A stretch of DNA of 52,942 nucleotides from a virus. Lineage: Duplodnaviria > Heunggongvirae > Uroviricota > Caudoviricetes. The stretch lies in the IMG/VR virus record IMGVR_UViG_2563366966_000001; one strand, 5' to 3'. This document shows, piece by piece, positions 36,964-40,745 of this stretch. The stretch's first letter is position 1. Each line of letters starts with the position of its first letter. A model generated the notes under the pieces. The model saw nothing but the letters and a program-made list of their open reading frames with translations, had not been told where the DNA came from and made no database searches. Made by a program: the position numbers and the translations under genes.

Positions 36964-38812
36964 AGTTAACATTACAAGATATAAGTAATGGACGCACTCC
37001 CAATTAGTCTATTTAAATCGCCACGAGTTTAACTGACAACCCATGATCAATTATGAATTGCAACTATTTCTGTAGTCACTTTTGTGGGGACAGTCCACAA
37101 AACTGCCAACTTCCGCTTCTTGCTCTTAGCGGACATTAGCATAGGCTATTTACCATAACGCCTCATTACGCGCACCGCCCAGACTGACTCAGCGCGTTTC
37201 TGGCATATCCCCGGTAAAACAAGTAACAAACCACCCGAAAATGAACACCAGAAACGCGACTTAAGAATCTACCCTATGAATGGATATGCACTCAACCGAA
37301 TCGATCTTGGTTTCAATCTTTTTTATCGGGATCAGGCTTCTTTTTAGGTAACTTCGGGGGCTTAACTTGCTGATGACTTTGCGTTCGGCGCGTAAGCCAG
37401 GGATGGTCAGCTTTAGGTTTAACATAGTATTTTGAGCGTAAATCAATACGGGCATTATCCACTCGTTCATGGACACTCTTTTCATCATCCAGTGGTATAG
37501 GCTCCGGGCCATCAACATACTTTTCCCAGCCCAGCGCTTTCCCGTCATACAGAACGTTAATTTCACCGTCAAAGTTCTCGCATACAGTAACAACCGAATG
37601 CCTAAGTCGATATCCCCGGCCCTCACTGCGTACCTGAAACGCACTGCTTTTGTACTGGAAAGTGAGATTTTTAGACAGAACGCGCTTCGCCTGTAGGCTG
37701 AAGATATAACCCAGTTCCTCTTCAGAATGGTGCACATCAAGATGAGCATTATCAGTAGTACGAGGCGACGTAGCGAACCGGTTGTTATAGGCTTCAATAA
37801 AGGTCGGCAACCATGCATTTGCTGTTTCAATATCACTGATATTCTGAAGCCGCATTTCTTTGACCAGCCTGTCCTGTAGTGTCTGATTGGCGCGCTCTAC
37901 CCGCCCTTTTGCCTGCGGGCTGTTGGCATGGATTGGCTCGATGCCCAGTGTCTTTATCGCACGAGTGAACTGGGTCAGCTCACCTTCCCGCTCTGGGTTA
38001 TTTACCCTGAATATACTGTGTCTATCAGAGTAGAGAGCGAGCGGTACGCCATGATCATTAAGGTAACCCCGGAGGGTTTCCATGTAAGCCCGGGTTGTTT
38101 CAGCAGGCACAAAACGCAACGCCATCAACGCACTGGTGGCATCATCAATGAAAACGATCAGTGTACATCTGGGGCCTCGATTTTCAAACCAGTCATGAGG
38201 TGAGCCATCAATCTGGATCAGTTCACCGTAAGATGGTCGTCGCATGCGGCGTTGATATATACGGGCAATTTTACGACGGCGTTCACGCCATAACCCCTCT
38301 TCTATCATCCACTTTCTGAGAGTTTCAACGGATAAAGATAAACCGTGTATCTCGCGCAATTTTTCGCACGCAAACGTAGGTCCAAAATCAGCGTAACGGC
38401 CTTTGAGGAGTGAAATTACTGTTGCTCTGAATTCAGTAGAAAAGGAATTATTAGGACGCTTTCCACGTCGGTGGGAAACCAGACCAGAAGGCCCTTCATT
38501 TCTATACCGTTGCACCAGACGTTTAACCTGCCGAATAGAAATGCCAATGCGTGCCGCAGCTTGTTCCTGAATAATCTGAAGTCGGTGGAGTTCCTTATGA
38601 CTCATCGTAACAGTCTCTTTGATCATGAAAAATCCCCCAGAGAATTGTCTGGGGACATTTTAGAATGGTTCAAAGGGGACATTACAGCTTGGTGTTAACA
38701 ATAGCCTGCTTCTCCGTGCCTTTCGGCACGTAAGAGGCTAACCTACATGTGTCTAGCATGAAATTGGCCTCAGATTAATGTTAAGCGTCTTGCAGGACGC
38801 GTAATGTTAACT
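36964..38812. mobile_element. Possible extent of the IS481-like element, bounded by a 12-bp perfect inverted repeat (AGTTAACATTAC / GTAATGTTAACT)
   Basis: Inverted repeat at 36964..36975 and 38801..38812 flanking the transposase ORF; no target duplication identified, so boundaries are tentative. Confidence 0.3.
37313..38626 (-). CDS. DDE transposase with N-terminal HTH (integrase-core type; IS481-family-like)
   Basis: 437-aa ORF; HTH-like N-terminus (RIGISIRQVKRLVQRY) and integrase-core signatures (D...D...E with GRVERANQTL); no IstB-like partner. Confidence 0.7.
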   Translation of the reverse strand: MIKETVTMSHKELHRLQIIQEQAAARIGISIRQVKRLVQRYRNEGPSGLVSHRRGKRPNNSFSTEFRATVISLLKGRYADFGPTFACEKLREIHGLSLSVETLRKWMIEEGLWRERRRKIARIYQRRMRRPSYGELIQIDGSPHDWFENRGPRCTLIVFIDDATSALMALRFVPAETTRAYMETLRGYLNDHGVPLALYSDRHSIFRVNNPEREGELTQFTRAIKTLGIEPIHANSPQAKGRVERANQTLQDRLVKEMRLQNISDIETANAWLPTFIEAYNNRFATSPRTTDNAHLDVHHSEEELGYIFSLQAKRVLSKNLTFQYKSSAFQVRSEGRGYRLRHSVVTVCENFDGEINVLYDGKALGWEKYVDGPEPIPLDDEKSVHERVDNARIDLRSKYYVKPKADHPWLTRRTQSHQQVKPPKLPKKKPDPDKKD

Positions 38813-38985
38813 GGGGCTTTTCTCTATCTGCCGTTGGTGTCCATGCCCGAGGCAGATAGCCTCAAGCACCCGCAGTCATTCTACTTAACTAAGATTTCCC
38901 CGCAAACCGTTTTTGTCCAGCACAGTAAATATCCAACTAAACCAATGGAGTTCGCTGTATTTACCGCCAGTATTCAATGCACATG

Positions 38986-39000
38986 ACCGCCATGAACACC
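38986..39000. repeat. 15-bp direct repeat ACCGCCATGAACACC, left flank of IS2-like element
   Basis: Identical 15-mer immediately outside both ends of the IS2-like element. Confidence 0.85.
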
Positions 39001-39091
39001 TGAGCTGGCCCCCTGAAATACCAGACAGTAGATGTATCTTAAAATAAGAGATAGGCTTGGATATATGTCTAACACTAGTTCTAATTTTGAG

Positions 39092-39460
39092 ATGGCTGGC
39101 GTTTTGTTAGGAAAAGAGGTGCGTAAACGTAAAACACCTCAGGAAAAAATCGCAATTATTCAACAGACTATGGAGCCGGGCATGACGGTGTCCCACGTGG
39201 CGCGTTTGCATGGAATTCAGCCCAGTCTGTTGTTTAAGTGGAAGAAACAATACCAGGAAGGAAGCCTCACTGCTGTGGCTGCCGGTGAAGACGTTGTTCC
39301 TGCTTCTGAACTGGCCGCTGCAATAAAGCAGATTAATCAGCTTCAGCGTTTACTGGGTAAGAAAACCATGGAAGTTGAGATCCTCAAAGAAGCGGTGGAG
39401 TATGCACAATCGCGAAAATGGATAGCGCATGTGCCCTTGTTACCTTCGGACAAGGAATAG
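39092..39460 (+). CDS. IS2-type OrfA (InsC-like, HTH)
   Basis: Similarity to IS2 InsC ([28 protein letters not shown]); ATG at 39092 chosen by alignment to InsC. Confidence 0.75.
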
Positions 39461-40299
39461 CCCCGGTAAGCCGTGTTCTGGGCGTGTCACGTGCGCAGTT
39501 AACATTACGGATGAAGGCATCTGATAACAAGCCAGATAAACGGCGTCAGAGGCGCGATGAGGCTGCGGATGCAGAAGTCTTATCGCGCATCCTTGATATC
39601 ATTGGCGATATGCCAGCATACGGGTATCGCCGTGTCTGGGCGATACTCAGGCGGCAGTCCCGAAATGAAGGACTACCGTTCGTGAATGCAAAGCGTGTTT
39701 ACCGGATAATGAGCGAAAATAGTCTGTTGTTGTTACATGACAAACCATCACGACGGCAGCGGGAACATAAAGGCCGAATATCGGTGAAGGAAAGCGACCA
39801 GCGTTGGTGTTCCGATGGCTTTGAGTTCGGTTGCGATGATGGCGAAAAACTGCGTGTTACGTTCGTCCTGGACTGTTGCGATCGTGAAGCCATAGACTGG
39901 GCCGCAAGCACGGGAGGTTACGATAAAGCGACAGTGCAGGATGTGATGTTAGGAGCGATAGAAAAACGCTTTGGCGATAAAGTACCGGAACAGTCCATCC
40001 AGTGGCTGACAGATAACGGTTCAGCGTACAGAGCGCATGAAACACGGCAGTTCGCCAGAGAGCTGAATCTGAAGCCCTGCACAACGGCAATCAGTAGCCC
40101 TCAGAGTAATGGAATGGCAGAACGGTTCGTGAAAACGATGAAGGAAGACTACATCGCGTTCATGCCGAAACCGAATGTAAGAACGGCATTGCATAACCTT
40201 GCAGTGGCGATCGAGCATTACAATGAAAACCATCCGCATAGTGCGTTGGGTTATCGCTCTCCGCGAGAATATCGACGTCAGCGGGTAATGTTAACTTAA
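39418..40299 (+). CDS. IS2-type OrfB (InsD-like DDE transposase catalytic domain)
   Basis: 293-aa ORF similar to IS2 InsD; likely expressed as an OrfAB fusion by frameshifting. Confidence 0.75.
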
Positions 40300-40530
40300 G
40301 ATACAACCCCTGTCTGGAAATAAGGGGGCAAGAACAACCGCCATGAACACCCCTAAAAAAAGGGCATTTATATATCCAAATATTAATATCAAAACATCAA
40401 CTTTTTCCATATACCTTGCTGTGAAGATGATGGGCATACATGATGCGAACAACCAGAACGCAACAAACAAAAACTGCAATGCGTTTTTCATTATTCCTCC
40501 TACAATCAATGTGCAATTACATTTAAACAC
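40291..40530 (-). CDS. Small hydrophobic protein whose 3-prime end is replaced by IS2-like sequence
   Basis: ORF of 79 aa; the last 14 codons lie inside the IS; removing the IS and one repeat copy restores a 72-aa ORF ending MCIEYWR. Confidence 0.4.
40337..40351. repeat. 15-bp direct repeat ACCGCCATGAACACC, right flank of IS2-like element
   Basis: Identical 15-mer immediately outside both ends of the IS2-like element. Confidence 0.85.
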
Positions 40531-40745
40531 ACCTCAATTTGGCCGGACATATAAATATCTAAACCAGAAAAAATCACTTACATAGCGTTACAAACTCTTT
40601 AGTCTAAAGGTTCATCGTAAAACATTCCCCATACTTATCAGTCCGTTCCGCGCCAGGTAGCTCATTGCCTTATCTGGCAACCTGTAATCAGGTTTCCGCT
40701 TTTTCAGTTGGCTGGTCGTTTAACCGACATAGTTAATCCATTAAT

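Follow-up and report, generated by a model that had tools for sequence, protein, structure and literature searches.

The ISEc48 copy and its neighbourhood

The window, that is the whole stretch of 52,942 nucleotides that was analysed, carries an insertion sequence of 1336 bp bounded on both sides by the 15-mer ACCGCCATGAACACC. The preliminary description of this DNA had reported a perfect 15-bp direct repeat abutting both ends of an IS2-like element, and this was borne out. The 15-mer occurs exactly twice in the window, both times on the plus strand and with 0 mismatches; shuffles give a chance expectation of 0.03 matches even with 2 mismatches tolerated. The repeat is exactly 15 bp long, as the base preceding it is g on the left and a on the right, and the base following it is t and c, respectively. 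The segment between the two copies starts with TGAGCTGGCCCCC and ends with GGGGGCAAGAACA, the right end reading CTGTCTGGAAATAAGGGGGCAAGAACA over a longer stretch. Its inverted repeats are imperfect, with approximately 21 of 28 positions complementary and one 1-nt gap, and the ends read TGAGCTGG... and ...AAGAACA, giving TG...CA termini. The features of the locus are collected in Table 1.

Table 1. Features in and around the ISEc48 insertion (positions in the window)
Feature	Position	Strand	Remarks
Intact ISNCY-family transposase gene, 437 aa	37313..38626	-	NCBIfam transpos_ISNCY_2, 456 bits
Match to the sok antitoxin family	38700..38871	-	Rfam RF01794, 104 bits, E = 7e-24; the insertion lies 115 bp to its right
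Duplicated 15-bp target, left copy (ACCGCCATGAACACC)	38986..39000		Exact repeat; single in the empty allele
ISEc48, 1336 bp, IS3 family, IS2-like group	39001..40336	+	100% full-length identity to labelled copies; TG...CA termini
Left terminal inverted repeat TGAGCTGGCCCCCTGAAATACCAGACAG	39001..39028	+	Matches the right end in reverse complement; alignable with the IS2 end TAGACTGGCCCCCTGAATCTCCAGACA in L084
orfA, 131 aa, helix-turn-helix DNA-binding protein	39065..39460	+	HTH_Tnp_1; same gene call in public assemblies
Putative -1 frameshift site CGAAAAT fusing orfA and orfB	39413..39419	+	A-run at 39415-39418; presumed slip position
orfB, 293 aa, DDE (rve) catalytic domain	39418..40299	+	HTH_21, rve, rve_3
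Small hydrophobic ORF, 3' end swapped for IS codons	40291..40530	-	Without family match; context only
Right terminal inverted repeat, end ...GGGGGCAAGAACA	40310..40336	+	Same end in every ISEc48 copy examined
Duplicated 15-bp target, right copy	40337..40351		Exact repeat; empty-allele comparison
Two consecutive ORFs, 134 aa and 115 aa	41255..42003	+	HTH_Tnp_1 (134 aa); TnpB-like (115 aa); about 900 bp right of ISEc48

Over its 1336 bp the element is 100% identical to many copies on E. coli chromosomes and plasmids that are labelled ISEc48. Near-full-length matches to it are present in at least 427 E. coli records. The RefSeq label on these identical copies is "IS3-like element ISEc48 family transposase", attached to one joined "programmed frameshift" CDS. 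The name used here follows this RefSeq/PGAP naming, which is derived from ISfinder, and the match is to RefSeq-labelled copies. The two reading frames overlap in the 0/-1 arrangement of the IS3 family, with a -1 frameshift that is itself predicted. OrfA matches Pfam HTH_Tnp_1 (3.9e-18) and scores 197 bits with the IS2 TnpA subfamily model of NCBIfam, below the cut-off of 229. OrfB exceeds the cut-off of the IS3 family model transpos_IS3 (207 bits against 160), stays below that of the IS2 TnpB subfamily (419 bits against 597), and reaches 93 bits with the IS481 model, where the cut-off is 224; this score, together with the two-ORF layout, places the element outside IS481/IS1202. The helix-turn-helix and DDE (rve) domains, the OrfB score above the IS3 family cut-off, and the imperfect TG...CA inverted repeats are those of the IS3 family. 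The 15-bp duplication at the window site lies outside the 3-5 bp of that family, just as the duplications of the ISEc48 clade described below depart from the 5 bp of the IS2 group. The earlier designation "IS2-like" is apt, since the IS2 TnpA and TnpB models are the best for OrfA and OrfB, yet score below their cut-offs, and the element is thus IS2-like but not IS2. Identity to IS2 is 69% at the nucleotide level and approximately 62% for OrfB.

The insertion was also said to replace the last 7 codons of a small hydrophobic ORF by 14 codons of the element. This codon count is borne out: without the insertion, the minus-strand ORF reads ...GVFMAV-MCIEYWR up to its stop, the last seven codons being those lost, and the interrupted form continues with 14 IS-encoded codons. 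The ORF has no match to a Pfam or NCBIfam family and is unannotated in E. coli ATCC 8739, so its status as a gene is unsupported.

Other mobile elements lie on either side. A related plasmid locus, L193, has a CDS for a Hok toxin just past the stretch matching sok, and in the window the ISNCY-family transposase gene occupies the position of that CDS. The sok match thus looks like a hok/sok leader remnant without toxin ORF. A tblastn search beside the insertion with four Hok proteins as queries gave no match to a Hok-like peptide, the hok coding part being absent. ATCC 8739 has a counterpart of the ISNCY transposase gene that its annotation describes as truncated. In several E. coli strains, IS1 has entered the same 574-bp stretch as ISEc48 (window region 38727-40650), and the region beside the hok/sok remnant has therefore been struck repeatedly by insertion sequences. 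The 115-aa TnpB-like ORF to the right of ISEc48 is one that we take to belong to the IS66 family, the pair of ORFs being presumably typical of an IS66-family element.

The 15-bp repeat as a target-site duplication

The empty allele was rebuilt by joining both flanks through one 15-mer, and the resulting 574-bp sequence was searched in complete E. coli genomes. It is present, contiguous and 100% identical, in many E. coli chromosomes, including those of ATCC 8739, W, and DH5alpha. In ATCC 8739 the 15-mer is single and bordered by exactly the left and right flanks of the window, and excision of precisely 1336 + 15 bp restores the wild-type allele. The site in ATCC 8739 belongs to a cryptic prophage of the Qin type; rem-hokD-relBE-flxA is found on one side of it, and dicC/dicA at a greater distance on the other. 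The ISEc48 junction of the window is absent from all 5,426 complete E. coli genomes searched; over 3.4 kb, the window is matched without any difference by scaffold KB733011.1 of assembly GCA_000352185.1. An empty allele with one 15-mer means that the repeat is a true 15-bp target duplication, the product neither of a prior repeat nor of misplaced termini. It is hence confirmed that the 15-bp repeat is a genuine target-site duplication made by ISEc48.

Two of the explanations that had been raised for its length fail on this evidence. An insertion with the usual 5-bp duplication into a site that already had two tandem 15-mers or a longer repeat is negligible as an explanation: many chromosomes share the single-15-mer allele over 574 bp at 100% identity, ATCC 8739 has exactly one copy, and more than 40 other insertions at unrelated sites are flanked by 15-16-bp repeats of unrelated sequence. 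That the real termini lie elsewhere and leave a real duplication of 5 bp is just as hard to credit, because the boundaries are the same in approximately 30 other, independent ISEc48 copies, whose flanks diverge right up to TGAGC... and ...GAACA, because the ends of ISEc48 align with those of IS2 base for base, and because the empty site is recovered by excising exactly the stated lengths.

Independent ISEc48 insertions were taken from complete genomes and public assemblies, and an insertion was scored when an exact repeat abutted both ends; locating assemblies by OrfA gave nearly the same places as locating them by OrfB. Among the 26 insertions with a detectable duplication, its length was 15 bp in 14, 16 bp in eight, 14 bp in one, 5 bp in one, and 4 bp in two. 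A further five ISEc48 sites had no detectable duplication. The long class of 14-16 bp thus makes up approximately 90% of ISEc48 duplications, and the short class 3 of 26. All three short duplications were confirmed against 100%-identical empty sites. For GTATC on plasmid p3R-1, more than 500 plasmids share the rebuilt empty site over 300 bp; for GAAA, in an ETT2 escJ-family gene, it is found over 400 bp in many chromosomes; and for GAGG, in an IncI1-type backbone, over 196 bp in sequences including NC_002122.

The preliminary description had proposed looking at other copies of the element in the same genome, and these are informative. Assembly GCA_000352185.1 holds other 100%-identical ISEc48 copies with 15-, 16-, and 4-bp duplications. 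Identical copies with 4, 15, and 16 bp indicate that one transposase yields two discrete classes of duplication, of 4-5 and 14-16 bp.

Some individual insertions were recorded in passing. On plasmids pECOD1-1 and pEC0430-1 (L195 and L198), ISEc48 lies inside an IS2 transposase gene and is flanked by the 14-bp duplication CCTAAGACATCAAT, the sole 14-bp case seen. The feral-pig isolate E. coli RM10740 (NZ_CP043821.1, e.g. L201) has unusually many, more than 20, matches to a variant with 98.7% identity to ISEc48 at its left end; the one copy that was read has a 15-bp duplication.

Duplication lengths in relatives of ISEc48 and in the IS2 sister clade

Relatives were collected by an OrfB scan of one genome per species and of JGI/ENA metagenomes, which returned one group at 74-98% and a second at 62-66% identity. 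Their ends were placed by ungapped matching of 30-nt terminal probes from eight reference elements. The identities fall into clusters, with at least 77% within the ISEc48 clade and 62-68% between the two clades. The scored duplications are listed in Table 2.

Table 2. Target-site duplications of elements related to ISEc48
Elements	OrfB identity to ISEc48	Duplications (number of insertions)
Relative at 89%	89%	16 bp (1)
Scandinavium	approximately 80%	15 bp (1)
Citrobacter, Klebsiella, Yersinia, Atlantibacter, Pantoea, and metagenome copies	approximately 77%	15 bp (11), 16 bp (6)
Ca. Sodalis endolongispinus	approximately 74-75%	15 bp (3), 16 bp (1)
IS2 in E. coli, Shigella, Klebsiella, Enterobacter	62-66%	5 bp (9)
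Aeromonas elements	62-66%	5 bp (6)
Superficieibacter / K. michiganensis	62-66%	5 bp (2)
Lonsdalea	62-66%	5 bp (1)

Outside ISEc48 itself, all 23 scored relatives in its clade, from eight other genera, have duplications of 15 bp (15 insertions) or 16 bp (eight insertions). For the whole clade this gives 14-16 bp in 46 and 4-5 bp in 3 of 49 duplications. The sister clade that contains IS2 served as a control with the same end-finding method and showed 5 bp in 18 of 18 insertions, with a long repeat in none of them. The sample is modest, with 49 scored insertions in the ISEc48 clade and 18 in the IS2 clade. ISEc48 (14:8) and the Citrobacter-type element (11:6) each show 15 and 16 bp at a ratio of approximately 2:1, and no duplication of 25-27 bp was seen among the 49. 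A duplication of 15-16 bp, rarely 4-5 bp, is accordingly normal for ISEc48 and its IS2-like clade, as opposed to 5 bp in IS2. Of the unusual insertion mechanism that had been considered for the window copy, the long stagger is thus supported; it is not peculiar to this copy, the same outcome being normal for ISEc48 and its close relatives.

Approximately 50 further copies lack a detectable duplication and could not be scored for length. Most of them come from a degraded Sodalis genome and from metagenome contigs, and copies without repeat are expected from recombination between copies. This bears on the possibility that the long repeats are secondary, an insertion with the normal 5 bp being altered later by recombination between copies, gene conversion, or duplication of the locality. 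Duplications are indeed erased or scrambled when IS copies recombine, and many of the Sodalis and metagenome copies are free of repeats. Such a process would nevertheless have to produce perfect 15- or 16-bp repeats that abut both ends at 45 independent sites in nine genera, in a constant 2:1 proportion, and would also have to spare the IS2 clade, where 0 of 18 insertions have a long repeat. A secondary origin is therefore highly improbable.

The genome of Ca. Sodalis endolongispinus (L028-L062) contains more than 40 copies of the ISEc48 relative, many internally deleted and most without flanking repeat, a loss that is consistent with extensive recombination among IS copies in a degrading symbiont genome. 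The Citrobacter/Klebsiella-type relative is very common on plasmids of Klebsiella and Enterobacter, with 1,521 PLSDB records holding a near-full-length copy.

The targets of 41 long duplications were aligned with 12 bp on either side of the duplication. The consensus has approximately zero information at every position and no symmetric signal, and the ISEc48-type element is consequently not site-specific. No signal of target sequence or composition for the short versus the long class was found in this small sample, nor any A/T or bendability pattern.

The proteins of the two clades were also compared. The elements are equal in size, and neither clade has an added domain. OrfB has two additional clade-specific residues near positions 38-40, in its N-terminal part, and the linker just before the catalytic core, which precedes the first catalytic D, is 2 aa shorter in the ISEc48 clade, the counterpart on the IS2 side being KPAVPPSKRAHTG. 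A nearby difference of 1 aa is not wholly clade-specific, as the relative at 89% matches the IS2 side. The clade-specific OrfB indels, including the shorter linker, are candidates for setting the length of the duplication, a proposal that rests on correlation in the aligned sequences.

A possible helical-turn register and comparison with known systems

Duplication length is usually treated as a family signature that reflects a fixed geometry of the integration complex, and 3-5 bp is quoted for the IS3 family, which is among the best studied. Within that family the lengths have been called "relatively conserved", with 4 bp in the IS407 subgroup, 5 bp in the IS2 subgroup, and 3 bp in the rest, in explicit contrast to IS481, IS1202, and IS481EU (PMC10045372). 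IS2, IS911, and IS3 transpose by copy-out/paste-in via a circle with abutted ends (PMC7780238). Their integration proceeds from a synaptic complex in which both 3' ends are nicked and symmetrically integrated, the duplication arising when the staggered gaps are repaired (PMC7780238). By analogy, ISEc48 would transpose by copy-out/paste-in through an abutted-end circle, and on integration its two 3'-OH ends would attack target-strand phosphates 15-16 bp apart with a 5' stagger, so that repair of the gaps would leave a duplication of that length.

The two classes of 4-5 and 14-16 bp are separated by approximately 10.5-11 bp, which corresponds to one turn of B-DNA. This spacing suggests that the angular relation of the attacked phosphates is the same in both classes and that the long class is one helical turn wider than in IS2. 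Judged by the lengths, the attacked phosphates would lie on the same helix face as in IS2, one turn further apart, and the integration complex might have two alternative target registers, of which the ISEc48 clade would strongly favour the longer. Helical-turn geometry is the most likely reading of the duplication lengths. For the locus in the window, it is very probable that a copy of ISEc48 entered an E. coli chromosome within a Qin-type cryptic-prophage region and that a long stagger, most likely in this helical-turn register, led to the duplication of 15 bp of target.

The long stagger might instead arise from a target that the transposase or a host protein such as IHF or HU bends sharply, loops, or wraps, or from catalysis by different subunits of a higher-order oligomer. 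Alternative assemblies or target conformations would be in keeping with a single transposase making duplications of both 4-5 and 14-16 bp, ISEc48 is of the same size as IS2 and has no extra domain, and an idea of inner versus outer subunits has been voiced for IS481EU (PMC10045372). The absence of a visible A/T or bendability pattern in the targets speaks, within the limits of a small sample, against bending, and nothing discriminates this explanation from the simpler geometry. We consider it rather unlikely, and the helical-turn register is preferred.

A search of the 5,426 complete E. coli genomes for a head-to-tail junction of ISEc48 yielded none, the sole full-length match being an IS2 separated by 1 bp from an ISEc48-like hybrid. 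In this locus (L192, E. coli B20123, NZ_CP142930.1, 313-2980), IS2 is followed by a single base C and then by the ISEc48-like element, which has a chimeric end with its first 17 nt of the IS2 type (TAGACTGGCCCCCTGAA) and ISEc48-like sequence thereafter. The arrangement is reminiscent of the 1-2-bp spacer between the ends in IS2 circle junctions.

As to how the difference between the clades arose, it is conceivable, and we put it forward tentatively, that a monophyletic sub-clade of the IS2 group switched its register by one turn, from 5 to 15-16 bp, retaining the former register for a minority of insertions and needing no added domain but a few small indels. If so, IS2 and ISEc48 form an E. 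coli-native pair of same-sized transposases, and IS2/ISEc48 chimeras and structures could show what determines the length of the duplication in DDE transposases, including the 5/15/25-bp classes of IS481, IS1202, and IS481EU. IS2 is a tractable partner for such a comparison, as genetics and in vitro assays already exist.

The literature search found no description of 15-16-bp duplications for ISEc48, the IS2 group, or the IS3 family, ISfinder records aside; one of the four papers naming ISEc48 does no more than list it, and hits concerning Brevundimonas and Citrobacter rodentium proved unrelated. A widespread enterobacterial clade departs from the IS3 rule by very nearly one turn of the helix, both registers being used by one and the same element. 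In practice, duplications of the ISEc48 clade will be overlooked or wrongly delimited by annotation and insertion-calling tools that expect repeats of 3-5 bp around members of the IS3 family.

Compared with IS2, ISEc48 has nearly the same size (1336 versus 1331 bp), the same layout of orfA and orfB with a predicted -1 frameshift, the same Pfam domains (HTH_Tnp_1; HTH_21 and rve), and alignable terminal repeats (T.(4)TGGCCCCCTGAA...CCAGACA); the copy-out/paste-in pathway of IS2 is presumably shared as well. The two differ in that one IS2 end is TA-3', whereas both ISEc48 ends are CA-3', and in the duplication, which is 5 bp in IS2 and 15-16 bp, rarely 4-5 bp, in ISEc48.

The closest parallel in duplication length is found outside the family. 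IS481, IS1202, and IS481EU show classes of approximately 4-6, 15-17, and 24-29 bp, described as "close to 10 bps apart", and several classes sometimes occur within one element, as in IS481EU-6 and IS481EU-7; on the mechanism the authors state that they have "no clue" (PMC10045372). A study of IS1202 gives classes of 5-6, 16-17, and 27-28 bp (bioRxiv 10.1101/2022.12.17.520857). Like ISEc48, these elements have DDE transposases related to the IS3 family and discrete classes approximately one helical turn apart, and IS481EU-6 and IS481EU-7 share with it more than one class from one element. Unlike ISEc48, they encode a single-ORF transposase without frameshift and include a class of approximately 25 bp that is unseen in the ISEc48 clade. 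ISEc48 hence resembles IS481/IS1202 in its duplication classes and not in family membership, and the phenomenon of discrete classes is thereby extended into the IS3 family.
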